A stretch of 64,000 bases of DNA from Nannocystis bainbridge (GCF_028368995.1 NZ_JAQNDL010000001.1:4064001-4128000); one strand, 5' to 3'. Positions 4,548 through 64,000 are shown, counted from the first letter of the stretch. Translations and numbers: made by a program. The notes: a model not told the origin generated them from the letters alone.

Positions 4548-7500
4548 ATGCGCGAGGAGTCGTGGGAGTTCTGGATCGATCGCGGCGGGACGTTCACCGA
4601 CTGCGTCGGCCGGGCGCCCGGGACCGGCCGGCTGCGCGCTATCAAGGTGCTGTCGACCGACGACGCGCCGCTGCGGGCGATCCGCGGGCTGCTCGGCCTC
4701 GGCGACCACGAGCCTATCCCGCGGTGCCAAATCCGCCTCGGCACCACCGTCGCCACCAACGCCCTGCTCGAGCGCAAGGGCGCGCCCACGGCCCTGCTCA
4801 TCACCCGCGGCTTCGCCGACCTGCTCGAGATCGGCGACCAGGCCCGACCGGAGTTGTTCGCGCTGGCGATCCACAAGCCGCCGCCGCTGGCCGCGACGAC
4901 CTGCGAGGTCGACGCGCGGCGGGCCGCCGACGGTGCAGTGATTGTGTCCCCCGAGACAGGTGCTTTGGAGCATGTCCTGAGGGACATCCATGATCGCGGC
5001 GTCCGCAGCGCGGCGGTCGCGGTGATCCACGATCACCGCGACGGCGGGCTCGAGCGGATCGTCGGGGCGGCGGCGCGGGCAGCCGGGTTCGAGGAGGTGG
5101 TGCTGTCGCACGAGGTCGCGCCGGCGCAGGGGCTGCTGGCGCGGGCCGAGACCGCGGTGGTCGACGCTTACCTGACGCCGCTGCTGCGGGCCTACGTGCG
5201 CGGGCTGCAGGCGCGCCTGGGCCCGGCGGCGGCGCTGCAGCTGATGCAGTCGAGCGGCGACCTGTGCGCGGCGGAGCGGTTCCGCGGGCGCGACGCGGTG
5301 CTGTCGGGACCGGCCGGCGGAGCAGTGGCGTGCGCGGCGATCGCTGCGCGGCTGGGGCTGTCGCAGGTGATCGGGTTCGACATGGGCGGGACTTCGACCG
5401 ACGTGGTCCGCTGGGGCGGCGAGCTCGAGCGCAGCTACGAGACGCGGGTCGCCGGGGTCCGCCTGCGCACGCCGATGCTGGCGGTCCACACGATCGCGGC
5501 CGGCGGCGGCTCGGTCTGCAGGTACCGCGATCGCAAGCTGGCCGTCGGGCCCGACAGCGCCGGCGCCGACCCGGGGCCGCTGTGCTACGGGCGAGCGAGC
5601 GCGCAGGCGTTGACGCTGACCGACGTCGACCTCGCGCTCGGCCGCCTGCACCCGGCCCGCTTCCCGTTCGCGCTCGACCGCGAGCGCGCGTTCGCGGGGC
5701 TCGAGGCGCTGGCGGCGGAGGTGAACGCCGGCGGGGCCGCGATGTCGCCGCTGCAGGTCGCCGAGGGGCTGCGGCAGATCGCCGACGAGCGCATGGCGGC
5801 GGCGATCCGCGACGTCACGGTGCGGCGCGGCCACGACGTCCGCAAGCACGCGCTGGTGGTGTTCGGCGGGGCCGGGGGTCAGCACGCGTGCGCGGTGGCG
5901 CGGGCGCTGCAGATCCGCACGCTGGTGTTCCATCCGCTCGCGGGGGTGCTGTCGGCCTTCGGCATCGGCGCGGCCCGGCCCGGCTGGCACGGTCAGGCGG
6001 ACGTCGGCGGGCTCGAGCTCGCGGAGTCCCTGGAACTTTCGGACATGTTCCAAAGGCTAGAGGACGAGGGCCGGGCGGCGCTGGCGGCCGAGGGCGCGCG
6101 CGAGGTCTCGGCGGTGCGGCGGGTCGACCTGCGCTACCGCGGGACCCATGTGGCGCTGACGGTCGCGTGGGGTTTGGGTCTGCGCGCGGCGTTCGAGCAG
6201 GCCCACGCGCGCGAGTTCGGCTACGCCCGGCCGGACCACCCGATCGAGGTGGTCAGCGCGCGGGTCGAGCTGCGGGTCGACGACGAGGCGGTCGGCGGTC
6301 ACCTGCCTGAAGAGACAGATGATTCCGACGTACCTGACCGTTCGGACATGTGGGTCGCGGGCGAGTGGCAGCGGGTGCCGACGCTGCGGCGCGAGGCGAT
6401 CGCGGCCGGGCAGGTGATCGTGGGGCCGGCGCTGATCCTCGACGCGACGGCGACGATCGTGCTCGAGCCCGGCTTCGTCGCCGAGCTGGCGGCCGACGGC
6501 TGCCTGGTCGCGCGCGACCTCACCGGCGTCGAGGTCGTCGCCGCCGGCAGCATCGACCCCGTCAGCCTCGAGATCATGGGTGCGCGGATCTCCGGCATCG
6601 CTCGCCACATGGGCGTCGTGCTGCAGCGGACCGCGCTGTCGACCAACATCCGCGAGCGGCTCGATTTCTCGTGCGCGGTGTTCGACGCCGGAGGCGGCCT
6701 GGTGGCCAACGCGCCGCACATCCCGGTCCACCTCGGGGCGATGAGCGAGTCGATCCGCGGGGTGCTGGCGGCCCACCCGGCGCCGCGGCAGGGCGACGTG
6801 TTCGTCACCAACGACCCCGCGGCCGGTGGTTCGCACTTGCCCGACATCACCGTGATCGCGCCGGTGCACGACGACGCGGGGGCGCTGTGCGGGTTCGTGG
6901 CCAACCGCGGGCACCACGCCGACGTCGGCGGCATCACGCCCGGGTCGATGCCGCCCGACGCGCGCACGCTGGCCGAGGAGGGCGTGGTGTTCCGCGCGTT
7001 CCCTGCGGTGCGCGGCGGGCGGTTCGACCGCGCGGGGGTGCTGGCGATCCTGTCCGAAGGGCCATGGCCGGCGCGGCGGCCGGAGGAGAACCTGGCCGAC
7101 CTCGAGGCGCAGATCGCCGCCAACCAGGCGGGCGCGCGGCTGCTGCGGGAGCTGGCGACGAGCATCGGCCCGGAGGCGCTGGCGAGCCACCTGCGGGCGA
7201 TCCAGGACGACGCGGCGGCCTGCGTCGGCGAGCTGGTCGCGCGCATGCCGGCGGGCCCGCGCACGTTCGTCGACGCGCTCGACGACGGCACGGCGATCGC
7301 GGTGACGCTGACGCGCCACGGGTCGCGGCTCGCGGTCGACTTCACCGGCACGGGGCCGCAGTCGGCGAGCAACGCCAATGCGCCGCGCGCGGTCACGGTG
7401 TCGGCGCTGCTGTACGTGCTGCGCGTGCTGGCGGGGCGACCGATCCCGCTGGCGTCGGGCTGCCTGCGCGCGGTCGACCTGGCGCTGCCGGCGGGCACGA

Positions 7501-8078
7501 TCCTGTCCCCGGGGCCAGGTGCGGCGGTGGCCTCGGGCAACGTCGAGACGGCGCAGCGCGTGGTCGATGTGCTGCTCGGCGCGCTGGGGGCCGCGGCCGC
7601 CAGCCAGGGGACGATGAACAACCTGAGCTTCGGCGACGCGAGCTTCGGTTACTATGAGACGATCGGCGGCGGCAGCGGCGCGATCGCGGGCGAGGCCGGC
7701 GCGTCCGGGGTGCACACGCACATGACGAACACGCGGATCACCGACCCGGAGGTGCTCGAGGCGCGATTTCCGGTGCGCGTGCATCGGTTCGCGCTGCGCC
7801 GCGGTTCGGGGGGGATCGGGCGCTGGCGCGGGGGCGACGGGCTCGTGCGCGAACTCGAATTCCTGCGCGGGGGGATCGAAGTCTCGATCGTGGCGGAGCG
7901 CCGCGGGCGAGCGCCGTTCGGGCTGGCAGGCGGCGCTGCGGGGGCGTGCGGGCGCAATCTGCTGGACGGGGCGGAGCTGCCTGGACGCGCGCGGACCACG
8001 GTGCAGGCCGGCCAGCGGCTCACGATCGAGACGCCCGGGGGCGGTGGGCACGGCGAACCGGGCTCCGGCGCGGGCTGA
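4548..8078 (+). CDS. oplA: 5-oxoprolinase (fused hydantoinase A/B-oxoprolinase)
   Basis: [62 protein letters not shown] motifs. Confidence 0.92.
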
Positions 8079-8120
8079 GGGGTTTTGCAGGGCCGGGGGG
8101 CTTGGGCTACCTTGCGGCCG

Positions 8121-8987: not shown

Positions 8988-9039
8988 GCGGCGATCCGGC
9001 CGCCCCCGGATTCCGCTCGATACGGGCGGCTGATCGAAG

Positions 9040-9091
9040 GGACATGCCCCATGGGGCATGTCCCTTCGCGCATGTCCCGGAGAGCATGCTC
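9040..9091. repeat. 14-bp-phased CATG palindrome array (4 units)
   Basis: CATG cores at 9043, 9057, 9071, 9085; GGGACATGCCCCATGGGGCATGTCCC is a perfect palindrome; between convergent genes. Confidence 0.85.
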
Positions 9092-9105
9092 CGGAGGCCA
9101 GCGCC

Positions 9106-14558: not shown

Positions 14559-14766
14559 GATGCTAACGCTAGCAAACCGTGCGGGCGCAGTCCCGTATCG
14601 GCCTGGAGGCGCTGGCGCACGCGGGCTGGCGGGCGCGCAAGCGACTACGCAGACGCGGCGCCGAGGCCGCGGGCCGGGAGGCGTTCGGGATCGTCGGTGG
14701 GCGCGGGTCCGGAGGCAGCGCTGGAGAGCGAACGGAGAGGCCGTGATCGCATCCGCCAAAATAGTG

Positions 14767-14851
14767 AGACATGACCTTTCGGCCATGTCTGATTTTGCAG
14801 CGAGCTGAGCCTTGTGCGAGTCCGTTCGGACATGTCCCATCGGCCATGTCC
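14767..14851. repeat. Two 14-bp-phased CATG palindrome pairs
   Basis: CATG at 14770/14784 and 14831/14845. Confidence 0.75.
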
Positions 14852-14862
14852 GAATCGGCACC

Positions 14863-16717: not shown

Positions 16718-18487
16718 TCAGTCTTCGGCGTCGCGGCTGCCGAAGGCCGCGCGGATGTAGCTCCAGCGCGACGTCGCCAGGTGCTTGATGACGTCGATCG
16801 TGCCGGCCTTGACGACGCCCTTGCCGAGCTGACCGTCGCGGAACAGCTCCGAGGTCTTGTTGCGCTGCAGCTTGCCGCTCGAGGTCTTGGGCAGGCTGCC
16901 GGGCACCAGCAGCACGACCTCGTCAGGCTTGAGCGCGAGGGTCTCGAGGATCTTGGCGGCGATCTTGTCGCGCAGGTCCTCGGCGTGCGGAGCCCGGACC
17001 TCGCAGGCGACGATCACCCGCTCGCGCCCGAGCGAGGCGTCCTCGATGCCGAAGGCGACCACGTTGCCGCGGCGCACGCCCTCGACCTGCGAGGCCTGCC
17101 ACTCGAGGTCCTGCGGGTAGTAGTTGCGGCCGTGGATGATGATGAGATCTTTGATCCGGCCGCACACGTAGAGCTCGCCGTCGGCCAGGTAGCCGAGGTC
17201 GCCCGTCGACAGCCAGCCGTCCTTGAGCACCTGCAAGGTGCGCTCGGCGTCGCCCCAGTAGCCGCGCATCACGCTCGGACCGCGCAGCTCGATCTGGCCG
17301 ACGCGACGGTCCGGCAGCGGGCCGCCCTCGGCGTCGACGATCCGCAGCTCGTGCTCGGGGAAGGTGCGCCCGCAGCAGACGACCTTGAGCGCGTCGTCGG
17401 CGTCGCTGGGCTTCGCCTCGCCGTGGACCAGCGCGTCGGGGTCGACCACGTCGGCGCGCAGGTCCTCCTCCAGCTCGACGAAGGTGACGGCGAGGCTGTG
17501 CTCGGCCATGCCGTAGCACGGCAAAAAGGCGGTGCGCTTGAAGCCCCAGGGGGCGAACCGCTCGGCGAACGCGTTGAGCGTGTCGTACTGGATCGGCTCG
17601 GCGCCGCAGCCGGCCACGCGCAGGTGCGACAGGTCGACGCCCTGCAGCTCGTGGTCCTTGATCCGCGCGGTGCACAGGCCGTACGCGAAGTTGGGCGCGA
17701 ACGAGACGCTGGCCTTGCGCTCCGACAGCTGGCGCAGCCACATCGCCGGCCGCTTGAGGAACAGCAGCGGCGACATGAACTGGACCCCGCGCACCTGCAG
17801 CACCGCCGGCGTGAACACGAAGCCGATGAGGCCCATGTCGTGGTAGAGCGGCAACCAGCTGAGGCCGAAGGTGTCGCCGTCGGCGCGCAGGCCGGCCCCG
17901 AGCGCCGCGATGTTGGCGATCAGGTTGGCGTGGGTGAGCGTGACGCCCTTGGGCTGCGAGGTGCTGCCCGAGGTGAACTGCAGGAACGCGACGTCGTCGG
18001 GCTTCACGTCGACGCCGATCGGCGCCGCGCGCTCGTCGACCGGCTTGACGAACGAGGCGTAGACCTCGACCGCGCGCACGCTCGGCACGTTGCTCATCAG
18101 CTTGCCGAGGATCGGCCGCACCTTGGCGTCGGTGACCACCAGCGAGCAGCCGGCCTGGCGCAGGATGTGGGTGGTGTTCGAGAGGTAGCCCTCGAACTGG
18201 CCGAGGTTCATCGGCGGATACACCGGCACCGGGATCGCGCCGGCGTACATCGCCCCGAAGATCGCCTCGACGAACTCCGACGAGTCCGGGAGGATGAGGC
18301 CGACGCGCTCGCCCGGGCGGACCCCCGCGGCCTGCAGCGCCGCGCCGAAGCGGCGGGCCCGCCGCGCGGTCTCGGCGTACGAGAGGAACCTGACCGGGTC
18401 CTTCTCCTGGACGAGGTGCGAGTAGCCGGCGTCGGCGCGGGCGGTCGCCGCGTCGAGGGCCTGCGTGAGCGTCTCGGGCCGCGTCAT
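16718..18487 (-). CDS. Fatty acyl-AMP ligase (FAAL)
   Basis: QFTSGSTSQPKG, SWLPLYHDMGLIG, YGMAE, TGDLG, KTSSGK. Confidence 0.9.
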   Translation of the reverse strand: MTRPETLTQALDAATARADAGYSHLVQEKDPVRFLSYAETARRARRFGAALQAAGVRPGERVGLILPDSSEFVEAIFGAMYAGAIPVPVYPPMNLGQFEGYLSNTTHILRQAGCSLVVTDAKVRPILGKLMSNVPSVRAVEVYASFVKPVDERAAPIGVDVKPDDVAFLQFTSGSTSQPKGVTLTHANLIANIAALGAGLRADGDTFGLSWLPLYHDMGLIGFVFTPAVLQVRGVQFMSPLLFLKRPAMWLRQLSERKASVSFAPNFAYGLCTARIKDHELQGVDLSHLRVAGCGAEPIQYDTLNAFAERFAPWGFKRTAFLPCYGMAEHSLAVTFVELEEDLRADVVDPDALVHGEAKPSDADDALKVVCCGRTFPEHELRIVDAEGGPLPDRRVGQIELRGPSVMRGYWGDAERTLQVLKDGWLSTGDLGYLADGELYVCGRIKDLIIIHGRNYYPQDLEWQASQVEGVRRGNVVAFGIEDASLGRERVIVACEVRAPHAEDLRDKIAAKILETLALKPDEVVLLVPGSLPKTSSGKLQRNKTSELFRDGQLGKGVVKAGTIDVIKHLATSRWSYIRAAFGSRDAED

Positions 18488-18492
18488 CGTCC

Positions 18493-18774
18493 TCAGGCCT
18501 CGCCGCGTTCCTGCGCGATGACCTTGACGACCTCGCGCGCGACGTCGCCGACGGTGACCACGTGCTGGAACAGCTCCATCGGCATGGTGATGCCGAAGTG
18601 ATCCTCGAGGTCGGACACCATCTCGAAGCTCTGCATCGAGTCGAGCCGCAGGTCCTGGATCAGGTGCGACTGCTCGCTCACCGGAGCAGCTGGCTTTTCG
18701 GCCAGGTTCTCGTCGAAGTAGGCGTAGATCTTGGCGAGCACGGCTTCGTAGGTAGGTCTTGCGGCTTCAGTCAC
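18493..18774 (-). CDS. Acyl carrier protein
   Basis: DLRLDSM phosphopantetheine Ser motif, LEDHFGI; small and acidic. Confidence 0.9.
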   Translation of the reverse strand: MTEAARPTYEAVLAKIYAYFDENLAEKPAAPVSEQSHLIQDLRLDSMQSFEMVSDLEDHFGITMPMELFQHVVTVGDVAREVVKVIAQERGEA

Positions 18775-18856: not shown

Positions 18857-19996
18857 TCACAGCGTGGTCTCGTACACGCGATACGTGGCGATCGGGTAGC
18901 CGCCCATGCTCTTCACCGCGGCGTTGACCCGGTCGTTGTCCTCGAGGGTCCAGCCGATCTGCCCCTCGGTCCAGCCGAGCCGGGCCGCGGCCCGGTGGGT
19001 GGCGAGGAACAGCAGCGTGTCGATGCCCTGGCCGCGGTAGGCGGCCTTGATCCCGAGCAGGATGAGCCGCCCCCCCTTGACGACCTTGCGCACCTTCAGG
19101 TCCCACAGGAGGCGCAGGACCCCGAACGGGAACAGCCGGCCGTCGAGCTTCTTCAGCACCGGGTTCACGTCGAGCACGGTGATCACGAACGCGACCGGCT
19201 CGCCCTTCACCTCGGCGATGATCGGCAGCCCGGGCTCGAGCACCATCTTGAGGTCCTTGGCGATGTGCAGGTACTCCTCGCGGCCGACCGGGACGAAGCC
19301 CCAGTTCTTCTCCCACGCGTCGTTCATCACCTCGAGCGAGCGCAGGACCTCGGCGTCCCAGTCGTCGAAGCGCATGTCGCGGACGGTGATGCCGCGCCGC
19401 GCGGCGACCTTGGCGGCGATCCGCTCGACGCGCTCGGGGATCGGTCGCTGCGGATCGACGCCCCAGTGCAGCAGGTCCTTGGCCTTGCGCAGACCTGTCC
19501 CTTGGAGCAGGCGGTCGTAGTACGGCGGGTTATACGGCATGTTGATGCCGGGGTCGCGGTCGAACCCCTCGATCAGCACGCCGGAGATGTAGTTCATCGA
19601 CAGCTCGAACGGGCCGATCATCGCGGTGCAGCCGCGGGCCGCGAGCCAGGCCTTGGCGACGTCGACCAGCGCCTGCGCGAGCGCGGGGTCGTCGGGGCAC
19701 TCGAACATGCCGAGGTAGCCGGTCTGCTCGCCATGGAATTTCACGAAGTCTTCGTCGCGTACGGCGGCGACCCGGGCGACGTCGCGCCCGTCCTTGCGCG
19801 CGATCCAGAACGCCGCCTGCGCGTGCTTGAAGAACGGGTTCTTGTCCGGGTTCAGATAGTCCCGCCGGTCCATCAACAGCGGCGGCACCCAGCGCGGGCT
19901 CGGGTGATGCTCGCGGTTGACGTACCAGGGCACCCGGATGAACCGCTCGACCAGCTTGCGGTCGCTGAGAGGGACTTCGATGAGCTCGAACGACAT
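18857..19996 (-). CDS. GNAT-fold N-acyltransferase, bacterial ceramide synthase (bCerS)/YghO-like
   Basis: WVPPL..NPFF, G.FEC.DD, MPYNPPYY, WGFVP, YRGQGID, WTLEDN motifs. Confidence 0.7.
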   Translation of the reverse strand: MSFELIEVPLSDRKLVERFIRVPWYVNREHHPSPRWVPPLLMDRRDYLNPDKNPFFKHAQAAFWIARKDGRDVARVAAVRDEDFVKFHGEQTGYLGMFECPDDPALAQALVDVAKAWLAARGCTAMIGPFELSMNYISGVLIEGFDRDPGINMPYNPPYYDRLLQGTGLRKAKDLLHWGVDPQRPIPERVERIAAKVAARRGITVRDMRFDDWDAEVLRSLEVMNDAWEKNWGFVPVGREEYLHIAKDLKMVLEPGLPIIAEVKGEPVAFVITVLDVNPVLKKLDGRLFPFGVLRLLWDLKVRKVVKGGRLILLGIKAAYRGQGIDTLLFLATHRAAARLGWTEGQIGWTLEDNDRVNAAVKSMGGYPIATYRVYETTL

Positions 19997-20172
19997 GGCG
20001 GCCTCGCAGCCGCGCGCAGCGGCCCGTACGAGCCGGGGGGCTACCGCCCGCCGCACTTCGCGTCAAGTGCGCAGAGGCCGCTCGAGCCCCGCGGGGGCAT
20101 CCCCCCGCGATCGCGAGGGCCTCGCGGGCTATCCTCGTCGCAGTGGCTGTCACGCTCGCGCGGTTTCAATTT

Positions 20173-20196
20173 CGACATGGCTCTTGGGTCATGTCC
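20173..20196. repeat. 14-bp-phased CATG pair
   Basis: CATG at 20176 and 20190 in a divergent intergenic region. Confidence 0.6.
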
Positions 20197-20394
20197 GAAA
20201 GAGCTGGCGAGCGCCCCGGCGCCGACGTCCGCGCGTTCTTCGCCGCCGCCCGTGCTGCCGCGCCGCGACGCGGGCACCCGCGCCGCAGCGGCCCGCCCTC
20301 GCCGGCGGACCGGCGCCCCGGCGCGGCGGTGGTAGCCCCTGCCGCGTCCCCTGCCACCTCGGCGGCTGCATCACCCCGTGGAAGCGAGTGAACC

Positions 20395-21369
20395 ATGCGA
20401 CATGTCCTTAAGACCATCTTCTTCATCGCCCCGCTCCTGCCCGCCTGCGGCGACTCTGGCCAGGGCAAGGACCCGACCGACACCGGCTCGGGGCCCGGCA
20501 TCGACTCGCTGAACACGCTCGGCAGCGACGGCGCCAGCGACTCGACCGCGAGCGGCGGCGCCAGCGAGGCGACGACGGCCACCACCGACGGCGGCAGCGA
20601 GGGCTCGGCGACCGCGGCGACGGTGACGGCGAGCGAGCCGACGACCACCACCGCGACCACCGGCCCGGACGAGACGACCAGCACCTCGACGACCTTCCCG
20701 CAGACCGCCTCGTCGCTGCCGGACACCACCGGCTTCGAGCCGCCGCAGTGCGACCCGGTGATGAAGGCGACGGTCCGCGACTTCCGCACCAGCCACCCCG
20801 ACTTCGAGACCTTCGGCGGCGACGCGGCCTACGAGGGCCTGGTCCAGCAGGACCTCGGGCCCGACAGCAAGCCGGTCTACGCCCACCCCGGCGGCACGCC
20901 GCAGACCACCGGGCCGGCCGAGTTCGCCCAGTGGTACAACGACACGCCGGACGTCAACATGGCGTTCGAGATCGACATCCCGCTGACCGAGGTGTCGCCG
21001 GGTCAGTTCACCTACCAGAACAACGCCTTCTTCCCCATCGACGGCCAGGGCTGGGGCGACGAGGGCAACCCGCACAACTTCCACTTCACCACCGAGATCC
21101 ACACCGAGTTCACCTACCAGGGCGGCGAGGTGTTCACGTTCACCGGTGACGACGACCTGTGGCTGTTCATCAACGGCAAGCTGGCGATCGACCTCGGCGG
21201 CCTCCATCCGCAGCTGACCGACACCATCAGCCTCGACGAGAACGCCGGTTATCTCGGGATCACGATCGGCCAGAATTACACGATGGACATCTTCCACGCC
21301 GAGCGGCACACCACCGACTCGAACTTCCGCATCGACACCAGCATCCAGTGCTTCGTCATCCCCGGCTGA
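20395..21369 (+). CDS. Fibro-slime/PA14 domain lipoprotein
   Basis: PAC lipobox, Thr linker, RDF..SHPDFE, FFPID, HNFHFTTE, FTGDDDLWLFIN, DLGGLH, FHAERH. Confidence 0.9.
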   Translation: MRHVLKTIFFIAPLLPACGDSGQGKDPTDTGSGPGIDSLNTLGSDGASDSTASGGASEATTATTDGGSEGSATAATVTASEPTTTTATTGPDETTSTSTTFPQTASSLPDTTGFEPPQCDPVMKATVRDFRTSHPDFETFGGDAAYEGLVQQDLGPDSKPVYAHPGGTPQTTGPAEFAQWYNDTPDVNMAFEIDIPLTEVSPGQFTYQNNAFFPIDGQGWGDEGNPHNFHFTTEIHTEFTYQGGEVFTFTGDDDLWLFINGKLAIDLGGLHPQLTDTISLDENAGYLGITIGQNYTMDIFHAERHTTDSNFRIDTSIQCFVIPG

Positions 21370-21494
21370 TTGCGGCCTAATACGCGGTGGGCTTCGGATG
21401 CCGAAGCTCACGCCGGATTTCGCTCGTAGCGGGCTGAACTACGCGGGAAAATTGTGTGCTCTTGGCCCCGGCTCCGTCGACGACGGACCTCAGG

Positions 21495-23009: not shown

Positions 23010-23087
23010 GCCGATGCCCGTGCGCCTGTCCGTCGGGACAGGCGCGCGGCGCCCCGCCCTGATCACCGGCTCACGCGCGGGCCCGAA

Positions 23088-27535: not shown

Positions 27536-30909
<3,374 letters not shown>

Positions 30910-30910
30910 A

Positions 30911-30962
30911 GAGCATGTCCGACGGGGCATGTCGCCGAGGACATCCCCTGTGGGCCACGTCA
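30911..30962. repeat. 14-bp-phased CATG array (4 units, last two degenerate)
   Basis: CATG 30914, CATG 30928, CATC 30942, CACG 30956; between convergent uvrA and hcp. Confidence 0.8.
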
Positions 30963-31699: not shown

Positions 31700-31764
31700 G
31701 CGCCTGCTCGTCACGACATGTCACAATGGACACATCGATCACACATGTCCTTTGGATCATGTCG
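31700..31764. repeat. 14-bp-phased CATG pairs
   Basis: CCTG 31703/CATG 31717 and CATG 31744/31758. Confidence 0.65.
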
Positions 31765-31774
31765 ACAACGCGCC

Positions 31775-31804
31775 GGCGGCCCCATGGGGCCCCATGGGGC
31801 CGCC
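31775..31804. promoter_or_regulatory. Perfect 30-bp palindrome in divergent promoter region
   Basis: GGCGGCCCCATGGGGCCCCATGGGGCCGCC. Confidence 0.5.
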
Positions 31805-40393: not shown

Positions 40394-41371
40394 ATGCAGA
40401 GCCGACCGATCTCCGACTTTATCCGCCGCCATTACCGCCACTTCAACGCGGCGGCGCTCGTCGACGCCGCGACGGCGTACCAGGCCCACCTGGACCGCGG
40501 CGGCAGCATGCTGGTCACCCTCGCCGGCGCCATGAGCACGGCCGAGCTCGGTCTCAGCCTGGCCGAGATGATCCGCCAGGGCAAGGTCACGGCGATCAGC
40601 TGTACCGGCGCCAACCTCGAAGAGGACGTGTTCAACCTCGTCGCGCACGACCACTACGTGCGCGTCCCGCACTACCGCTCGCTCACCGCCCAGGACGAGC
40701 AGGCTCTGCTGGAGCGTCACCTCAACCGCGTCACCGACACCTGCATCCCCGAGATGGAGGCGATGCGGCGCATCGAGACCGCGGTGTTGGCCGAGTGGGA
40801 AGGCGCCGACCGCGCCGGCGAGCGCTTCTTCCCGCACCAGTTCATGTACAAGATCCTGCGCTCGGGTGTCCTGAAGGACAGCTACCAGATCGACCCGAAG
40901 GACAGCTGGCTGATGGCGGCGGCCGAGCGCGACCTGCCGATGTTCGTGCCCGGGTGGGAGGACTCGACGCTCGGCAACATGTACGCCGGCCACGTGATCG
41001 AGGGTCACGTCAAGAACGTGCACACCGTGCGCACCGGCATCGAGTACATGATGGAGCTGGCCAAGTGGTACACGGGCACCTCGGACAAGAGCTCGATCGG
41101 GTTCTTCCAGATCGGTGGTGGCATCGCCGGCGACTTCCCGATCTGCGTGGTGCCGATGCTGCACCAGGACCTGCGCCGCACCGAAGTGCCGCTGTGGGGC
41201 TATTTCTGCCAGATCAGCGACAGCACCACCAGCTATGGCTCGTACTCCGGCGCCGTGCCCAACGAGAAGATCACGTGGGGCAAGCTCGGCGTCGACACTC
41301 CCAACTTCATCATCGAGTCCGACGCGACGATCGTCGCGCCGCTCGTGTTCGCCTACGTCCTGGGCTGGTGA
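40394..41371 (+). CDS. Deoxyhypusine synthase-like protein (probable homospermidine biosynthesis)
   Basis: AGAMSTAE, TGANLEED, DSTLGN, IGGG, GSYSGA.PNEKITWGK (catalytic Lys), SDATI. Confidence 0.9.
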   Translation: MQSRPISDFIRRHYRHFNAAALVDAATAYQAHLDRGGSMLVTLAGAMSTAELGLSLAEMIRQGKVTAISCTGANLEEDVFNLVAHDHYVRVPHYRSLTAQDEQALLERHLNRVTDTCIPEMEAMRRIETAVLAEWEGADRAGERFFPHQFMYKILRSGVLKDSYQIDPKDSWLMAAAERDLPMFVPGWEDSTLGNMYAGHVIEGHVKNVHTVRTGIEYMMELAKWYTGTSDKSSIGFFQIGGGIAGDFPICVVPMLHQDLRRTEVPLWGYFCQISDSTTSYGSYSGAVPNEKITWGKLGVDTPNFIIESDATIVAPLVFAYVLGW

Positions 41372-42407: not shown

Positions 42408-42504
42408 AGGCCGCTGCTGTTTAGAAGAGGAGGACGCGCGCGCGCCATGTGCCGCGCGCCTCCAAAACCCAGCAGGGCGGCGGGTCGCCCGAGAGGAGCT
42501 GACA

Positions 42505-44250: not shown

Positions 44251-44280
44251 AGTCATCCGACCCTCGAAGAAGCAAGCCTC

Positions 44281-44892
44281 ATGGGTCTCGACTACCGCTT
44301 CGAGTTCATCGCCCCGCGCAGCGGCGCCGACGCTCTGCTGACCGCGCTCGCCGACCACGTCGAGGACGCCTACGCCCGCCGCCTGCGCGCCTGCTTGCCG
44401 TGGTCACCCAACACCCCGCACCAGGTGAACGCCGGCGTTCACGGCCTCCCGCCTGCCTTCGACATCCCCAACCATTACGACCTCGTCGTCATGGTCCCCG
44501 TCGACCCCGACGTCCGGCGCTACTTCGAAAGCTACCATGAGCCGCTCGCGCGCCACGTCCGGGACGGCAAGGCCGGCATCGGCCTCGTGTACATGTCGCT
44601 GCATGCCGGCCCGCGCTACGTCGCCCTCAAACTTTCGGCCGCGAGCAGCGGCATGAGTCGACTGTTCGCCGGGTCCGGCAGCGTTCGTCGGATCATGACC
44701 TCGCTCGCCGCCGCCGCGCGGGTGCACGCCGCCTTCCTCGACACCGAGGACGGCGACCGCTGGGAGCTGCTGTTCCCGCGACCTTCAGCCCTGACGGCGT
44801 CCCTATCGGTCTCACGGCCCCCCGCCGACCCGGAGGACCCGGCAGACTTCGACGCCTACTGCGACCTCGCCCTCGATCTCGCCGGCCTCTGA
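44281..44892 (+). CDS. Hypothetical protein
   Basis: 203-aa ORF with host-like codon usage 30 bp after the OLD gene. Confidence 0.65.
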   Translation: MGLDYRFEFIAPRSGADALLTALADHVEDAYARRLRACLPWSPNTPHQVNAGVHGLPPAFDIPNHYDLVVMVPVDPDVRRYFESYHEPLARHVRDGKAGIGLVYMSLHAGPRYVALKLSAASSGMSRLFAGSGSVRRIMTSLAAAARVHAAFLDTEDGDRWELLFPRPSALTASLSVSRPPADPEDPADFDAYCDLALDLAGL

Positions 44893-44901
44893 CGATTCCG
44901 C

Positions 44902-44939
44902 AAACATGCATCTCCAGACATGTCCCCATGGACATGTCC
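44902..44939. repeat. 14-bp-phased CATG array (3 units)
   Basis: CATG at 44905, 44919, 44933. Confidence 0.8.
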
Positions 44940-45041
44940 TTGGATGCTCCCGCTTCCCCGCGGAGCCCGCCGCGCCGGCGCCGTTGCCGGACTCGCTTCC
45001 AATTAAATATCTCATGGTGAGTCCACCGCATCGTATGGAGC

Positions 45042-45737: not shown

Positions 45738-45923
45738 AAGCGATCGCGCCCGGCTCGCTCGAGCCGCGGTGCTCGAGATCAAACGGTCGCATCCGCTCCG
45801 GTCGACAAATCAGGATCGCGCCGCCCTGGATCCCGCGCTGTTGGCCGGACCCGGACGATTTCGCGCCTCGCTCTCCTGGCAAATCCGCCTGCTCTCGCCG
45901 CCATCGGGCATGCTGGTGGCGAC

Positions 45924-46850
45924 ATGCCGGTCTCATTCGGCCGCTCCGTGCTCCTGCTCGCCGCGTTCGCCTCCTGCTCGCCGCGGCCGCACGCCTTCGA
46001 GGACAGCGCCGGCGACACCACGGGCTCGCCTGCCACAACGAGCACGAGCACGACCGGCATGCATCTCACTTCCACAAGCGCGGGCGAGCCCACGTCCGGC
46101 ACCTCAGGCGAAGGCACCTCGAGCACCTCCACCAGTGACGACCCCGTCTTCATCGCTCCGCCCGACCTCGGCGACGGCCCGCCGGAGTGCGACCCGTGGG
46201 TGCCCGCATGTCCCGAAGGACAGAAGTGCATGCCGTACTCCGGTGACGGCGACAGCGCCTGGGAGAGCTGGGGCTGCTTTGAAAAAGTCCCCGACCCCGA
46301 CCTGCTCGGCGAGCCGTGCACCAACTTCGGCGACGTCAGCGGCCTCGACTCCTGCGACGCGGGCCACATCTGCTGGGTCACCGAAGCAGAGCCTCCTGGC
46401 AGCACCTGCATCGCCATGTGCACCGGCTCCCCCGAAGCTCCGCAATGCGCCGATCCGCTGACCACCTGCAACATCGCCGCCGATTACGCCGTCATCCTCT
46501 GCCTGCCGATGTGCGACCCGCTGCTGCAAGACTGCAGGGGCACCGACCTGTGCATCCCGAAGTGGCCCTGGACCGAAGCGAGCGAATTCACCTGCGCTCT
46601 GGACGCCAGCGGCGACGAGGGTCAGGTCTTCGACCCGTGCGAGTACGGCAACGAATGTGATCTCGGCCTCCTCTGTCACCCTTCCGCTCTGGCCGACGAG
46701 TGCGACCCGCGGGCCACCGGTTGTTGCCTCCCTTTCTGCGACGTCACCCAGCCGAACAGTTGCCCCGGCGCGGGTCAGGAGTGCGTCTCCTGGTACGAAC
46801 CCGACGCTGCGCCGCCACTCGACGCCATCGGCACCTGCCGCCTGCCCTAG
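45924..46850 (+). CDS. Cys-rich lipoprotein (paralog 1)
   Basis: FASC lipobox, Thr linker, ECDPW...CPEGQKC.P, CTGS...P.C, GCCLPFCD. Confidence 0.8.
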   Translation: MPVSFGRSVLLLAAFASCSPRPHAFEDSAGDTTGSPATTSTSTTGMHLTSTSAGEPTSGTSGEGTSSTSTSDDPVFIAPPDLGDGPPECDPWVPACPEGQKCMPYSGDGDSAWESWGCFEKVPDPDLLGEPCTNFGDVSGLDSCDAGHICWVTEAEPPGSTCIAMCTGSPEAPQCADPLTTCNIAADYAVILCLPMCDPLLQDCRGTDLCIPKWPWTEASEFTCALDASGDEGQVFDPCEYGNECDLGLLCHPSALADECDPRATGCCLPFCDVTQPNSCPGAGQECVSWYEPDAAPPLDAIGTCRLP

Positions 46851-46927
46851 CTCCGACCTCGCGCAGGCCCACTCCAGGACCCTTGCGCGAGCCTTCGCCC
46901 CGCCGCCTCGCTGCTACTCTTGCTGCG

Positions 46928-47827
46928 ATGTCGAGGCGCCCCTCTCGAAGCTTCGCGCTCGCGCTGCTCGGCCTGCACGCGTGCGGCACCGGCCCGGCCG
47001 GGCAGGTCGGCGAGGGCACCGGCTCCGTCATCCTCTCCGACTCGACCACGGCCGCCACCACCGGCTCGACCACCCATCTTTCCAGCACTGACCCGACCGA
47101 GGGCTCCTTCATCGCCCGCCCCGACGCCGCTGCCATCGTCGAGTGCGACCTCTTTTTGCAGGACTGTCTCGAAGGACAGAAGTGCACCGCCCTGAGCGGC
47201 GACGGCGACGGCCGCCTCGACACCTTCCGCTGCGTCCCCGTGGCCCGCGATCCCGACGCTCCGGGCCAGCCGTGCGCGACCGGCGAGCGCCCGCTCGACG
47301 GCCACGACTCCTGCGCCGCCGGATCGATCTGCCACGAGCAGGCCGCCGATCCCGCTGACCGCGTCTGCGTCTCGTTCTGCACCGGCAGCCCCGACGACCC
47401 CGGCTGTCCGCCGCAGGGCCTCTCTGCCTGCAGCACCGCCCATTGGTGCTCGATCTTCGCCTCAGGCCTCTCGGTCTGCCTGCCCGGCTGCGACCCGCTC
47501 CGCGACCCCTGCCCTGGCTCCCAGGTGTGCGCCCCGCTCGCGCTGGGCCTCGGCTTCATCTTCGAGTGCCTGCCCGACATCTCCGGCAGCACCGGCGCAT
47601 TCGCTGACGGCTGCAACGAGAGCAGCGAGTGCGACCCCGGCCTGCACTGCGACGAACCGAGCGCCGCGCTCGAGTGTGATCCAAAGGTCGCCGGCTGCTG
47701 CGTGCCCTGGTGCGACCTCACCAAGGCTTCGGCGTGCCCGGGCGCGGGTCAGACCTGCCAGCCGTTCTACGATGACGGCGAGGCCCCGGAATGCTTGCAC
47801 CTCGGCGTCTGCCGCCTGCCGTCGTGA
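46928..47827 (+). CDS. Cys-rich lipoprotein (paralog 2)
   Basis: LHAC lipobox; same Cys spacing as the upstream gene; ends GVCRLPS. Confidence 0.8.
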   Translation: MSRRPSRSFALALLGLHACGTGPAGQVGEGTGSVILSDSTTAATTGSTTHLSSTDPTEGSFIARPDAAAIVECDLFLQDCLEGQKCTALSGDGDGRLDTFRCVPVARDPDAPGQPCATGERPLDGHDSCAAGSICHEQAADPADRVCVSFCTGSPDDPGCPPQGLSACSTAHWCSIFASGLSVCLPGCDPLRDPCPGSQVCAPLALGLGFIFECLPDISGSTGAFADGCNESSECDPGLHCDEPSAALECDPKVAGCCVPWCDLTKASACPGAGQTCQPFYDDGEAPECLHLGVCRLPS

Positions 47828-47845
47828 CGAAGAAACATCATGCTA

Positions 47846-47951
47846 CGACATGACCGAAAGGTCATATCGTATTATCAGAAATTCATATCACGTTCCGATG
47901 GACATGTTCCTTGGTTTATGTCCATCTGGACATGCCCCGAAGGGCATGTCC
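47846..47951. repeat. 14-bp-phased CATG array (5 units plus a pair)
   Basis: CACG 47889, CATG 47903, TATG 47917, CATG 47931, CATG 47945; also CATG 47849/CATA 47863; between convergent genes, AT-rich. Confidence 0.85.
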
Positions 47952-47967
47952 AAACATTGCACGACTG

Positions 47968-49389: not shown

Positions 49390-50065
49390 CGCTCTCACCC
49401 TCCGAATCGATGTCGGTCGCAATCACGAGGCTTGCGAGCGCCGTCGTCGGCAGCCCGTCCTCGCGCTGAATCACTCGCCGCAGCGCGGCCCGCTTGCCCG
49501 TCCCCGCGGCCATCATCACCGCGTGCGGCGTCGCCTGCAGCACCGGCAGCGTCAGGCTCATCCGTCGCGGCGGCGGCTTCGGGCTGTCCGCCACGAACAC
49601 CGCCGCCCCCGTCGCCTGCAGCGCCGCGTGCCCGGGGAACAGCGACGCCACGTGCCCGTCCTCGCCGAGCCCCAGCAGCGCCACGTCGAGCCCGCCCGCG
49701 AACTCGCGCGCGAACGCCCGCTCGAACCGCGCCACCGCCCGCGCCGGATCGTCGTCGTCGTCGGCCCACAGCGGCAGCGCCGAGGCCGGCGGCGGCAGCC
49801 CGAGCCGCAGGTAGCCCCCGCGGTTGCTGCCCTCGTCGCTGGCCGGCACGCAGCGCTCGTCGACCCACGTGAGCTGCACTCTCGACCATGTCCCTTTCGA
49901 CAGGTCCTCGAGGACATGTGGCAGCACCGCCAGCGCCGAGCCGCCGGGGATCGCCAGGCGGCACGCGCCGCGCTCGGCGTCGACGCGGGCGATCGCGCGG
50001 GCCAGGCGCTCCGCCGCGACCTCGGCCGGCCGCGGCGACCGCAAGATCTCGAGCTGCGGCGTCAT
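49382..50065 (-). CDS. pgl: 6-phosphogluconolactonase
   Basis: [40 protein letters not shown]. Confidence 0.92.
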
Positions 50066-55074: not shown

Positions 55075-55099
55075 GCGCATCTCGAGCGATGCACTCGAA

Positions 55100-55123
55100 A
55101 GACATGCTCCAAGCGACATGTCT
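55100..55123. repeat. 14-bp-phased CATG pair
   Basis: CATG 55103/55117 between convergent genes. Confidence 0.7.
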
Positions 55124-55169
55124 CGCTCGCGTTCACGCAGGCGAGTGGCCCCGCGTCACCCGCCGAGCG

Positions 55170-55673: not shown

Positions 55674-55683
55674 GGTGCTCCTG

Positions 55684-56217: not shown

Positions 56218-56218
56218 G

Positions 56219-59816: not shown

Positions 59817-59838
59817 TACCCTGCTGCCCGCTGCGATC

Positions 59839-61983
59839 ATGGCGCCCGTCGAGCTCACCCATCCGAGTCTCTACATCAATCGCGAGCTCAGCCAGCTCGA
59901 GTTCCACCGCCGCGTGCTCGAGCAGGCGATGGACCCGCGCGTCCCGCTGCTCGAGCGCCTGCGCTTCACCACGATCGTCAGCACCAACCTCGACGAGTTC
60001 TTCGAGGTCCGGGTCGCCAGCATCAAGGAGCAGGTCGGCTTCGGCCTGCCGCAGGTCGGCCCCGACGGCCGGACCCCGCAGGACGCCCTGCGCGCGCTCA
60101 AGGAGCAGGCGCAGAAGCTCGTGCGCGAGCAGTACATGTTCCTGCAGCAGCAACTGCTGCCCGCGCTCGCGGCCGAGGGCATCCGCCTGCTCAAGCTCTA
60201 CACCTGGACCCCGGAGCAGAGCGCCTGGCTCGAGGACTACTTCGACCGCGAGGTCTTGCCGGTGCTCACGCCGATCGGCCTCGACCCGTCGCACCCGTTC
60301 CCCAACATCCAGAACAAGAACCTCAACCTGATCGTCGCCCTCGCCGGCAGCGACGCGTTCGGCCGCGACAGCGGCACCGCGGTGGTGCAGATCCCCCGCA
60401 GCCTGCCGCGCCTGGTGTTCCTGCCGCCCGGCGTCGCCGACTGCCCGCACGGCTACGCCCTGCTCGGCTCGATCGTCACCACCTTCGTCCACAAGCTGTT
60501 CTCCGGCATGCAGGTCCGCGGCTGCTACCAGTTCCGCGTCACCCGCGACAGCGACCTGTGGGTCCAGGAGGAGGACGTCGAGGACCTGCTCAACGCGCTC
60601 AAGGGCGAGCTGCGGACCCGCAACTTCGGCGACGCCGTGCGCCTCGAGGTCAGCGACACCTGCCCGCCCGAGATGGCGGACTTCCTGCTCAGCAAGTTCG
60701 ACCTCCAGCCCGACGACCTGTACCGCGTCGACGGCCCGGTCAACCTCCACCGCCTGGCCGCGATCTACGACGTCATCAAGCGGCCCGAGCTCAAGTACCC
60801 GCCGTTCATCCCCGGGCCGCGGCGCACGCCCGGCGCCGAGGTCGACCTGTTCGCCGAGCTGCGGCGCGGCAACATCCTGCTGCACCACCCGTACGAGAGC
60901 TTCTCGCTGGTGCTCGAGCTGGTGCGCCAGGCCGCGCGCGACCCCAAGGTGCTGGCGATCAAGCAGACGCTCTACCGCACCGGCGCCGACTCGCCGATGG
61001 CCGAGGCGCTGCTCGAGGCGGCCCGCGCCGGCAAGGAGGTCACCGCCGTGGTCGAGCTGCGGGCCCGCTTCGACGAGGCCGCCAACATCGACCTCGCCAC
61101 CCGGCTGCAGCAGGCCGGCGTCACCGTGGTCTACGGCATCGTCGGCTACAAGACCCACGCCAAGGCGTTGCTGATCGTCCGCCGCGAGGACGGCCGCTAC
61201 CGCCGCTACGTCCACCTCGGCACCGGCAACTACCACAGCGTCACCGCCCAGTTTTACACCGACTTCAGCTTCCTCACCTGCGACGACGCGATCGGCGAGG
61301 ACGTGCACAACGTGTTCATGCAGCTCACCGGCCTGGGCAGCGTGCCGCGCATGAACAAGCTGCTCGTCTCGCCGTTCACCCTGATGGACCGGCTGATCGC
61401 CCTGATCGACCGCGAGGCCGACAACGCCCGCCAGGACAAGCCCGCGCGCATCATCGCCAAGCTCAACGCGCTCACCGAGGTCAAGGTCATCGAGGCCCTC
61501 TACCGCGCCTCGCAGGCCGGCGTGTCCATCGACCTGATCGTCCGCGGCGTCTGCTGCCTGCGCCCCGGCGTGCCCGGCGTGTCCGACAACATCCGCGTGC
61601 GCTCGATCGTCGGCCGCTTCCTCGAGCACCACCGCATCTACCACTTCCACAACGCCGGCGACGAGGTCACCTACGGGGCCAGCGCCGACTGGATGTCGCG
61701 CAACCTGCTGCGCCGCGTCGAGACCGCGTTCCCGATCGAGGACCCGGCCCTGCGCGCCCGCGTCGTCACCGAGGCCCTCACGACCTACCTGGCCGACAAC
61801 ACCCAGGCGTGGGAGCTGCAGGCCGACGGCAGCTACGTCCGCTGCTGCCCCACCCCCCCGACCGAAGAGGCCCGCCCGGCCCAGGAGACCCTGCTCCGCC
61901 TGCTGTCGGCCAACCAGGGCGCCGCCCAGGCCCAGCGCCAGATCCTCGAGGACCTGATGGTCCGCCAGGAAATGCTCGAATAG
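59839..61983 (+). CDS. ppk1: Polyphosphate kinase 1
   Basis: NRELS, NLDEFFEVRV, HPFP, HHPYESF, ELRARFDE, KTHAK, GTGNY, GRFLEH. Confidence 0.96.
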   Translation: MAPVELTHPSLYINRELSQLEFHRRVLEQAMDPRVPLLERLRFTTIVSTNLDEFFEVRVASIKEQVGFGLPQVGPDGRTPQDALRALKEQAQKLVREQYMFLQQQLLPALAAEGIRLLKLYTWTPEQSAWLEDYFDREVLPVLTPIGLDPSHPFPNIQNKNLNLIVALAGSDAFGRDSGTAVVQIPRSLPRLVFLPPGVADCPHGYALLGSIVTTFVHKLFSGMQVRGCYQFRVTRDSDLWVQEEDVEDLLNALKGELRTRNFGDAVRLEVSDTCPPEMADFLLSKFDLQPDDLYRVDGPVNLHRLAAIYDVIKRPELKYPPFIPGPRRTPGAEVDLFAELRRGNILLHHPYESFSLVLELVRQAARDPKVLAIKQTLYRTGADSPMAEALLEAARAGKEVTAVVELRARFDEAANIDLATRLQQAGVTVVYGIVGYKTHAKALLIVRREDGRYRRYVHLGTGNYHSVTAQFYTDFSFLTCDDAIGEDVHNVFMQLTGLGSVPRMNKLLVSPFTLMDRLIALIDREADNARQDKPARIIAKLNALTEVKVIEALYRASQAGVSIDLIVRGVCCLRPGVPGVSDNIRVRSIVGRFLEHHRIYHFHNAGDEVTYGASADWMSRNLLRRVETAFPIEDPALRARVVTEALTTYLADNTQAWELQADGSYVRCCPTPPTEEARPAQETLLRLLSANQGAAQAQRQILEDLMVRQEMLE

Positions 61984-62033
61984 GCATGTCCCTCAGGACA
62001 TGCCCCCGGGAGCATGTCCCTTGCGACATGCCC
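61982..62033. repeat. 14-bp-phased CATG array (4 units)
   Basis: CATG at 61985, 61999, 62013, 62027, filling the gap between convergent genes. Confidence 0.88.
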
Positions 62034-62043
62034 TCGCTACACC

Positions 62044-62873: not shown

Positions 62874-62994
62874 GACCCGGGCGGTGTACCACGCCGCGCG
62901 AGCGCCGGCCCACGCCGCCGCGGCTGCGTCGCTCGCAAGCACGCCCCTCGCGCGAGCGCGCCCGAGCACGGGCACGATCACCCGAATCCCTGCC

Positions 62995-63049
62995 GCCCCG
63001 AGAATCACTCCGCTGCCCCGAGAATCACTCCGCTCCGAGAATCACTGCC
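62995..63049. repeat. Short 20-bp tandem repeat
   Basis: GCCCCGAGAATCACTCCGCT x2 plus partial CCGAGAATCACT in a divergent intergenic region. Confidence 0.75.
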
Positions 63050-63129
63050 ACTCGGACAAACCTGCCCTCGCGACCTCGCATCCCCGTGACCCCGACCTCC
63101 CCTCGCGCTCCGCTGCTACAGTCCTCGCC

Positions 63130-64000
63130 GTGCTCGTCCTCGGCGATCTGCCTGGCCCTGACGCGGCGCCCAAGTCGGCCGTCCTCTCGCGCCTGCTTCA
63201 CGCCGGCCTCCCGGTCCCGCCCGGCCTCGCCGTCGCGCCCGAAGAGCTCGCCGACCCCGACATCCGCCGCCGCCTCCACGCCCTGCTGAGCGGCGGCCCC
63301 GTCATCGTGCGCGCCGCGCTCGCCAGCGAGGACACCGCCGACGCCGCCGCCGCGGGGCTCGGCCTCTCGGTGCCCGACTGCCGCGACCTGGGCGACATCG
63401 ACCGCGCCGCCGCTGCCATCGCCGACGCCGCCCACGACCCCTGGCTGCTGCGCTACAGCGGCGACGTGCCCGCTTACCAGCTGCTCGTCCAGCGCCAGGT
63501 CGAGCGCCGCTGGCTCGCCGTCGCGGCCGCCGATCGCGGCGGCGCCCGCACGCTCGAGCTGCACGACGCCACCCGCCCCGACGCCCTCGCCGCCGGCGCC
63601 AGCCCGACCTGGTCCGGCCCGCTCGCGCTCGCCGAACCCGCGCTCGCCGCTGCCATCACGAGTATCTTCGACCATGTCGCATCGGCCATGTCCGAAGTGC
63701 CAGCCCTCGACCTCGAGCTCGTCGTCGACCCGACCGGCGCCGTGTGGCTGGTCCAGGCCCGCCCGCTCGCGCGCCCGCTCGTGCCCGGGTGGCCGGAGTT
63801 CTGCGCCGCCGTCGCCCCCGACCAGGACCACATCCCCGGCCTGCCCGGCCTGTGGCGGCTGGACGGCGAGCACAACCCGGCCGCGCTCTCGCCCGCGCAC
63901 GCCGGCGTGATCGCCTGGCTCATCGGCCAGGGATCCAGCCTGCGCGTCCTCGGCGGCTGGCTTTACGAGCGCGCCGCGTCCTCCGGCCGCACCGCCGCCA
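63130..64000 (+). CDS. PEP/pyruvate-binding (PPDK/PEP synthase N-terminal-like) domain protein, partial
   Basis: Not in the ORF track; read manually: PKSAVLSRLLHAGLPVPPG, VIVRAALASED...AG, LLVQRQV, LDLELVVD..G.VWLVQARPL; runs off the window end. Confidence 0.7.
   Translation, partial: MLVLGDLPGPDAAPKSAVLSRLLHAGLPVPPGLAVAPEELADPDIRRRLHALLSGGPVIVRAALASEDTADAAAAGLGLSVPDCRDLGDIDRAAAAIADAAHDPWLLRYSGDVPAYQLLVQRQVERRWLAVAAADRGGARTLELHDATRPDALAAGASPTWSGPLALAEPALAAAITSIFDHVASAMSEVPALDLELVVDPTGAVWLVQARPLARPLVPGWPEFCAAVAPDQDHIPGLPGLWRLDGEHNPAALSPAHAGVIAWLIGQGSSLRVLGGWLYERAASSGRTAA

Follow-up and report, generated by a model that had tools for sequence, protein, structure and literature searches.

What is the short palindromic sequence that recurs, with cores 14 bp apart, along a 64,000-nt stretch of the Nannocystis bainbridge chromosome (NZ_JAQNDL010000001.1, 4064001–4128000; below, the window, meaning the whole 64-kb stretch analyzed), and what might it do? 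The initial annotation had taken a 10-bp palindrome with a CATG core as the repeated unit and pictured a row of duplex sites bound by an abundant dimeric protein. Our analysis pointed to a different basic module, the inverted repeat C-M-TGTCC-N4-GGACA-K-G, in which arms of 5–7 nt, sometimes up to 15 nt, surround a 4-nt loop. The interpretation that we favor, and to which we give an even chance of being right, is that these modules are a Nannocystis family similar to the repetitive extragenic palindromes (REP) and bacterial interspersed mosaic elements (BIME), acting as hairpins at transcript ends, probably with a sequence-specific protein partner.

The 14-bp period proved to be real. The window contains 259 CATG tetranucleotides, which formed 20, 9 and 6 pairs at distances of 14, 28 and 42 bp, respectively, against means of 0.65, 0.61 and 0.66 in 200 dinucleotide shuffles, among which the maximum at 14 bp was 3. 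At other distances from 5 to 119 bp the real sequence averaged 1.4 pairs with a maximum of 6, and the phase was sharp, with 1 pair at 13 bp and 4 pairs at 15 bp. The excess of 14-bp spacing that the initial annotation had anticipated was thus confirmed. Chaining of position-weight matches delineated 20 arrays comprising 52 units, close to the “about 40 sites” first counted by eye, and averaging gave a unit, W-GGGACATGTCCC-W, that repeats every 14 bp. The five arrays and seven pairs originally named were all found in place, some with degenerate outer units: exact CATG cores lie at 9043/57/71/85, 44905/19/33, 61985/99/62013/27, 30914/28 and 47903/31/45, exact CATG pairs at 14770, 14831, 20176, 31744, 32869 and 55103, a CCTG/CAGG pair at 23025, and degenerate outer cores at 30942 (CATC), 30956 (CACG), 47889 (CACG) and 47917 (TATG). 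Tandem Repeats Finder reported period 14 at just two arrays and with low scores; in agreement with the initial annotation, the arrays are therefore not simple tandem duplications, their units being too divergent.

These counts bear on the null explanation that there is no family here, the matches being due to chance or base composition, or the hairpins being ordinary terminators of independent origin. Low-scoring single units are indeed common in coding DNA, with 32 matches at a position-weight score of at least 10 compared to 26.5 in a synonymous-codon shuffle (codons permuted among synonyms within each gene). Against this explanation stand the 14-bp pairs and the 34 modules described below, both far above their shuffled means (0.65 and 1.77), the near absence of arrays from other high-GC genomes (1 in 1.16 Mb), and the sharing of one arm sequence by five species and by intergenic regions that are otherwise unrelated. 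Chance as the sole source of the repeats is excluded, and we consider the absence of a family extremely improbable.

With at most one mismatch, TGTCCNNNNGGACA (TGTCC-N4-GGACA) matched the window 34 times, compared to 1.77 times in 100 shuffles, and the CATG-centered decamer was less enriched (19 matches versus 2.27). The spacing was almost invariant: TGxCC-Nn-GGyCA occurred 27 times with n = 4, never with n = 3 and once with n = 5, and TGTCC/GGACA spacers of 2, 3, 5 and 6 nt gave 3, 0, 1 and 0 matches at the same mismatch threshold, none exceeding the shuffles. The half-sites are conserved, with arms extended by their flanks to C-M-TGTCC and GGACA-K-G, and the spacer sequence is free. In intergenic arrays, the arms centered on the spacer averaged 6.1 pairs (maximum 15), compared to 3.8 pairs (maximum 9) for arms centered on CATG. 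The stronger axis of symmetry thus passes through the 4-nt spacer rather than the CATG core, and the 10-bp palindrome is a secondary feature, arising where abutting modules join as GGACA/TGTCC to create both the CATG core and the 14-bp period. Isolated modules lacking any CATG exist, such as the single module GCGCCTGTCC-GTCG-GGACAGGCGC at 23018–23049 between convergent genes, whose CCTG and CAGG cores are complementary to each other and not to themselves. An imperfect form, TGTCC-N4-GGCCA, was found at eight plus-strand sites (7051, 7504, 14037, 14833, 33430, 35975, 48743 and 62793) and its mirror just once (36627), a bias in small numbers that is independent of gene orientation.

The position of the arrays relative to genes was assessed with our own gene calls, made from third-codon-position G+C (GC3) statistics and Pfam, in which stops are firm and starts less firm, and which divide the window into 8.1 kb of non-coding and 55.9 kb of coding DNA. 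Fourteen of the 20 arrays fell in the non-coding part and six in the coding part, and modules were about 6 times denser in non-coding DNA (16 in 8.1 kb versus 18 in 55.9 kb). For 10 of the 14 non-coding arrays, a stop codon was no more than 23 nt away, and two arrays extend over stops, those of uvrA and ppk. Among intergenic regions of at least 30 bp, an array or module occurred in all 6 convergent regions, in 7 of the 17 tandem ones and in 2 of the 8 divergent ones (p=0.01 for convergent versus divergent, Fisher’s test), these classes being approximate because they depend on the gene calls. The convergent gaps at 30910–30959, 61984–62043 and 8988–9105 are nearly filled by an array. Hairpins with a T-tract numbered 4 between 44 and 64 kb, compared to 4.9 expected, and none coincided with an array; thus, no classical terminators compete for the array positions. 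Tandem intergenic regions at 42408–42504 and 21370–21455 contain GC-rich palindromes outside the family, so not all gene-end hairpins here use the motif.

To assess structure, 15 stretches were folded as RNA, each against 200 shuffles, and for 9 of them none of the shuffles was as stable (z −4.3 to −6.7). Where units are not palindromic on their own, the neighbor compensates: GGACATGCCC stands beside GGGCATGTCC at 9040, 47928 and 61982–62033, and at the last of these sites the unit types alternate GT, AC, GT, AC. Such AC/GT-type neighbors accounted for 8 of 32 adjacent pairs and AC+AC pairs for none. Overall, adjacent units were complementary at 4.56 of 8 non-core positions, compared to 3.64 with shuffled partners (reached in 0 of 2000 trials). 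Covariation was scored in 45 chosen spacer-centered 32-mers, of which the window supplied 30 and four related species 15, some of them mutually orthologous. Paired cells made up 69.5% versus 62.7% in shuffles, cells changed on both sides numbered 84 versus 51.6, and the covariation score was 0.273 versus 0.169, with none of 500 shuffles reaching any of the three values and with slid controls 23–46% paired; because related rows can beat shuffles without structure, we regard this covariation as support and not as proof. The clustering at 3′ ends and the covarying arms of up to 15 pairs point to folded hairpins rather than to the row of independent duplex sites proposed at the outset.

Individually, the arrays are placed as follows. 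A four-unit array at 9036–9095 occupies the gap that separates the stop of lgt (8987) from the convergent stop of a PD40 gene (9106); its first two units form a 32-nt perfect palindrome, and the RNA fold of the array has −50.7 kcal/mol (z −6.65, a stability matched by none of 200 shuffles). Two two-unit hairpins at 14763–14794 and 14824–14855, with arms of 10 and 13 pairs (z −4.33), are located immediately 3′ of the stop of an FG-GAP gene (14863, minus strand). The hairpin at 32861–32894, 15 nt past the stop at 32848, has 15-pair arms (z −6.20) built from units that are complementary to each other and not palindromic singly, with stem flanks outside the motif. A three-unit array at 44898–44943 is found 7 nt past the stop at 44892 (z −5.06), and the space from the stop at 47827 to the convergent gnd stop (47968) holds a hairpin at 47842–47873 and a four-unit array at 47896–47955, with arms of 12 and 13 pairs (z −5.0 and −4.35). 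At 61978–62037, a four-unit array (z −5.2 and −5.7) overlaps the ppk stop (61983) and ends 8 nt before the convergent stop at 62044. Weaker folds were obtained for the 3–4-unit array at 30907–30952 (z −2.0 and −1.3), which has degenerate outer units and fills the 50-bp spacer from the uvrA-like stop (30909) to the hcp stop (30960), and for the two-unit array at 55096–55127 between convergent stops at 55074 and 55170 (z −1.1 and −1.3). Divergent regions contain the two-unit hairpin at 20169–20200 (z −2.59, 2 of 200 shuffles as stable) and, upstream of hcp, two overlapping two-unit arrays at 31710–31768 (z −2.63). The weak two-unit array at 45902–45933, near a candidate start codon at 45924, is an uncertain member with scores of 10.0 and 9.8.

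Comparison between genomes indicated that unit number is variable and host range narrow. The Ppk protein of the window is 96–97% identical to that of Nannocystis exedens DSM 71, N. pusilla Na p29, Nannocystis sp. RBIL2 and N. punicea FL3, and the DNA at 49.9–64 kb is ~92% identical to each of these four species, which bears out the myxobacterial host assumed earlier. The spacer 3′ of ppk carries an array in all five close genomes, ranging from 3 to ~6 units with differing unit sequences between flanking genes that are ~92% identical, and no array follows ppk in three distant Nannocystis metagenome-assembled genomes (MAGs; loci L004, L005 and L008). In L004 and L005, TCA directly follows the ppk stop, and we read it, from the trinucleotide itself and not from gene calls, as the putative stop of a convergent gene. 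The convergent spacer at 55.1 kb behaves like the ppk spacer, with an array in three or four close species and differing unit numbers. By unrooted parsimony, this pattern suggests insertion followed by expansion and contraction in the exedens–pusilla–punicea clade.

By sequence set, the counts were 20 arrays and 0.53 modules per kb in the 64 kb of the window, 17 arrays and 0.36–0.63 modules per kb in 88.6 kb of the four close species, 4 arrays and 0.18 modules per kb in 65 kb of four distant Nannocystis MAGs, and 1 array and 0.014 modules per kb in 1.16 Mb from 70 high-GC loci outside Nannocystis (the 2.4-kb locus L007 being omitted from both counts). Seven loci labeled Myxococcota, Myxococcales, Myxococcia, Polyangiales or “MYXO” (143 kb) contained 0 modules. 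Judged from these sequences, the module looks genus-wide and the CATG-phased arrays look typical of one clade. In N. punicea, a 400-nt intergenic stretch (locus L006, 15330–15740) harbors four modules together with a local duplication of ~250 nt, and the first of these modules has a stop codon in its loop and GTTTTCG after its stem. A longer dispersed element around the module in N. punicea was considered and rejected, as it corresponds to the local ~250-nt duplication and is absent from the window. At 18440–18690 of a distant MAG (locus L009), a 67-nt tandem duplication includes GGACCTGTCC-N4-GGACATCTGG and lies near two abutting units joined through CAGG, so that forms resembling arrays may occur outside the exedens clade too.

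Does this family belong to a known system? The element appears to be undescribed, as the initial annotation had suggested: an Rfam scan of the window at gathering thresholds gave 0 matches, and a literature search, with subscription papers and supplements outside its scope, turned up no account of this motif, nor of REP-like repeats in any myxobacterium, Nannocystis included. The written N4 forms of the motif had no literature match, and for the CATG decamer, which by coincidence is a p53 half-site, the matches listed were p53 half-site and primer papers, with none on bacterial repeats among them. Of the likenesses suggested at the outset, that to REP/BIME held and is the closest, that to matS failed on density and that to the cyanobacterial HIP1 on distribution. 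Sites of the matS/parS type number a few to some tens per chromosome and are confined to one region, and the module, at ~0.5 per kb over the whole window, is too dense to be such an architectural site. A CRISPR array was also rejected, since CRISPR repeats exceed 20 nt and have unique spacers of similar or greater length, and the units here are 10 nt with 4-nt spacers.

BIMEs are clusters of palindromic units in alternating orientation with short linkers, and they bind gyrase, IHF or Pol I. The Nannocystis arrays resemble them in forming clusters of 2–5 units with alternating orientation and short linkers. Like the REP/BIME elements of Enterobacteria and the REP/REPIN elements of Pseudomonas, the module is short, imperfectly palindromic and capable of hairpin formation, its arrays are enriched outside genes and at 3′ ends, cluster copy number varies between relatives and the sequence is specific to a lineage; as in REPINs, inverted neighbors pair with each other. 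REP copies lie predominantly in extragenic space; here the arrays divide 14 to 6 between 8.1 kb of non-coding and 55.9 kb of coding DNA, and 18 of the 34 modules are inside genes. Passages of PMC3337134 and PMC5581495 describe REP and REPIN sequences in these same terms, as short imperfect palindromes that are extragenic, lie at 3′ ends, have inverted neighbors, form hairpins and are lineage-specific. The REPIN criterion given in a passage of PMC5581495 is that of highly abundant near-identical copies, seen as abundant 16-mers, and the main text of that paper contains no mention of myxobacteria or Nannocystis. The differences are that the Nannocystis module is much shorter, with ~10 specified bases, that its loop and linker are both exactly 4 nt, which produces the strict 14-bp phase, that its free spacers yield no abundant identical 16-mer in the 64-kb window, and that half of its copies are inside genes and enriched there. 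The hairpins also resemble intrinsic terminators in being GC-rich, in lying right past stop codons and in being able, potentially, to work bidirectionally between convergent genes, and they differ from them in lacking a U-tract, in sharing their stem sequence across loci and in having copies in genes.

Their location at 3′ ends, the stability of the hairpins, the covariation, the inverted neighbors, the changes in unit number and the restricted range of hosts together argue for a REP/BIME-like family. On this interpretation, arrays would have been inserted or expanded in intergenic DNA, chiefly right past stops and between convergent genes, and, when transcribed from either side, would fold into stable hairpins at gene ends. 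By analogy with what is reported for REP elements, these hairpins would act at transcript ends with no U-tract behind them, whether by stopping transcription or by protecting the 3′ end. A loop of fixed length and conserved arms imply a sequence-specific protein partner, which may recognize the folded or the duplex module and would probably account for its spread.

Several findings weigh against transcript-end hairpins of the REP type. No U-tract follows the array hairpins, and 6 of the 15 folds were not clearly better than shuffles (30905–30960 and 55090–55135, each on both strands, 20160–20210 and 31705–31775). A loop of exactly 4 nt is not required by folding alone, and the central T·C mismatch (TGTCC..GGCCA) found in 8 of 27 modules weakens the 5-pair stem. 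The sense-strand excess of G·U pairs that marks selection at the RNA level was absent, with 16 G·U versus 25 A·C in a noisy set of 75 sites having up to 2 mismatches. No GTAG head was seen in the family. RAYTs, the REP-associated Y1 transposases, are encoded by a cognate single-copy gene flanked by REP repeats, and neither a RAYT nor a Pfam Y1 transposase was present among the 50 open reading frames (ORFs) of the window that were scanned. No motif-derived 16-mer recurred in the 64 kb, where the top 16-mers came from a repeat-rich gene. The approximate nature of the intergenic classes also counts on this side.

So do the copies inside genes. Coding modules made up 18 of the 34, compared to 4.1 in the synonymous-codon shuffle (4.4-fold), and coding arrays 6 of the 20, compared to 0.45, neither number being reached in any of 200 shuffles. 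Third codon positions within coding modules were A or T in 33% of cases versus 7.9%, an excess that is partly circular, as the motif itself contains A and T, so that the codon shuffle is the fair test. The coding arrays include one of 3–4 units at 4943–4993 in a hydantoinase/oxoprolinase gene, one of three units at 49882–49923 in pgl, and a two-unit pair at 63668–63695 in a conserved coding region; four close species retain this pair, and the distant MAG L005 lacks it. An exact module, TGTCC-TGAA-GGACA, stands isolated inside a gene at 40867–40880, and coding DNA contains further copies, each with no more than one mismatch, beginning at 4945, 4973, 6335, 7051, 7504, 10669, 35975, 36627, 45227, 46209, 47165, 48743, 49889, 49903, 52626, 55789 and 62793. 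We considered in-frame insertion of the coding arrays (three units equal 42 nt) and rejected it: the pgl and hydantoinase products align across the site to solved relatives without gaps, and these arrays are therefore native protein sequence written in rare codons. Five coding sites in the region common to four species were largely kept, often with constant arms and a changed spacer, which is unlike REP elements. At the pgl array, the fetched loci of three close species span the site fully or partly, and all three retain the array (locus L003 stops short of it, and its row is a misalignment). Separately, two tandem Cys-rich paralogues at 45924–47827, 37% identical (E 1e-50) and without a Pfam or PADLOC family, both retain a module within a common C-P/L-E-G-Q-K-C coding stretch.

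Much of this evidence would be expected if the modules were duplex sites for a putative abundant, Nannocystis-specific dimeric protein binding side by side every 14 bp, with the hairpins as a by-product of palindromy. Such a protein might be a nucleoid, supercoil or transcription-boundary factor at convergent ends. The strict 4-bp spacing of the half-sites (N4 in 27 modules, N3 in none and N5 in one), the conserved half-sites around a free spacer, the tolerance of a central mismatch in 8 of 27 copies, the missing G·U bias and the strict phase (20 CATG pairs at 14 bp, compared to 1 and 4 at 13 and 15 bp) all fit this possibility, as do the enrichment of coding copies over the synonymous shuffle and their retention across species. 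The absence of recurring identical 16-mers makes the copies resemble sites rather than pasted elements. A symmetric dimer, on the other hand, would need neither covarying arms nor complementarity reaching into unconserved flanks, up to 15 pairs; the 3′-end bias and the few copies in promoter regions misfit a general nucleoid protein, and no candidate protein was identified. The strict spacer, the tolerated central mismatches and the in-gene enrichment favor sequence-specific recognition and are accounted for better by such a protein than by hairpins, and the coding copies, free spacer, missing identical 16-mers and absence of a visible RAYT keep the duplex-binding idea alive as a possible account, with about half the weight that we give to the hairpins. 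In a more specific form, which we find rather doubtful, a genus-specific dimeric protein bound to TGTCC-N4-GGACA would fill the 14-bp arrays between convergent genes as a boundary to transcription or supercoiling, and additional single sites in genes would be kept by selection against codon usage.

The abundance of the module within genes also recalls DNA-uptake signals. The DNA uptake sequence (DUS) of Neisseria is a genus-specific word of ~10 nt that occurs once per kb or two, also in genes, and as inverted pairs at gene ends; like the uptake signal sequence (USS) of Haemophilus, such words are over-represented genome-wide and in genes, often as inverted pairs that double as terminators. Uptake signals are defined by the preferential uptake of DNA containing the word and by a competence receptor. 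The Nannocystis module shares the restriction to one genus, the inverted pairs at gene 3′ ends and a density of ~0.5 per kb, with half of its copies in genes and enriched against codon usage. It differs in being a bipartite palindrome with a free spacer, whereas known uptake words are continuous and oriented, and phased arrays of 3–5 units would be unexpected of an uptake signal. The module is not known to be linked to DNA uptake, and we know of no report of competence in Nannocystis, although no search for one was made. Overall, an uptake function appears improbable.

Slightly less probable still is the idea, also put forward for HIP1, that a bias in methylation or repair maintains a hyper-abundant palindrome, with the CATG junction as the modified site. 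HIP1 is a continuous 8-mer spread through the cyanobacterial genome, and the Nannocystis motif resembles it as an over-represented short palindrome that is present inside genes too, against codon usage; CATG, moreover, is a palindromic tetranucleotide of the type targeted by methyltransferases. However, CATG alone was slightly depleted rather than enriched in coding DNA (177 versus 197 in the codon shuffle), many isolated modules have CCTG/CAGG or no CATG, and the enriched feature is the N4 geometry. The motif also departs from HIP1 in being bipartite, in forming arrays and in its far higher density in non-coding DNA.

The window has a G+C content of 70.7% and an ordinary chromosomal gene content by Pfam, including hydantoinase, lgt, pdxA, uvrA-like, hcp, gnd, pgl, zwf and ppk genes, a Ser/Thr kinase, FG-GAP proteins and DUF4215 proteins, and a tRNA scan of it found 0 genes. 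A 581-amino-acid AAA_21/AAA_15 ATPase is encoded within 42505–44892, its best PADLOC matches being AriA and GajA-type defense ATPases (E 1e-22 to 1e-18); it is followed by a 203-amino-acid ORF without a family match, local G+C is lower (0.63–0.64), and the 42505–44892 region may be a small defense island. Positions 1–2000, with a G+C content of 0.56–0.64 and candidate ORFs at 21–728 and 766–1854 without a Pfam match, may be foreign or non-coding DNA. Cumulative GC skew climbs to ~20 kb and then declines to the end of the window, and its turn in a divergent intergenic region (~19000–21000) could reflect gene-strand bias or a replication landmark. Tandem repeats of 36–42 nt at 27812–27943 lie in the N-terminal extension of the uvrA-like gene, and a divergent intergenic region at 62984–63046 contains ~3 copies of a 20-bp tandem repeat (consensus GCCCCGAGAATCACTCCGCT) unrelated to the module.

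The repeats would be a readable mark of gene 3′ ends in Nannocystis DNA, where classical U-tract terminators are not evident. The family could aid annotation, and its variable unit number could serve strain typing. It combines traits of a copied element (intergenic insertion, variable units and covariation) with those of a recognition site (fixed geometry, free spacers and in-gene selection), and this mixture makes it useful for studying the origin and maintenance of repeat families of this type. The family also points to a putative sequence-specific partner protein in Nannocystis.

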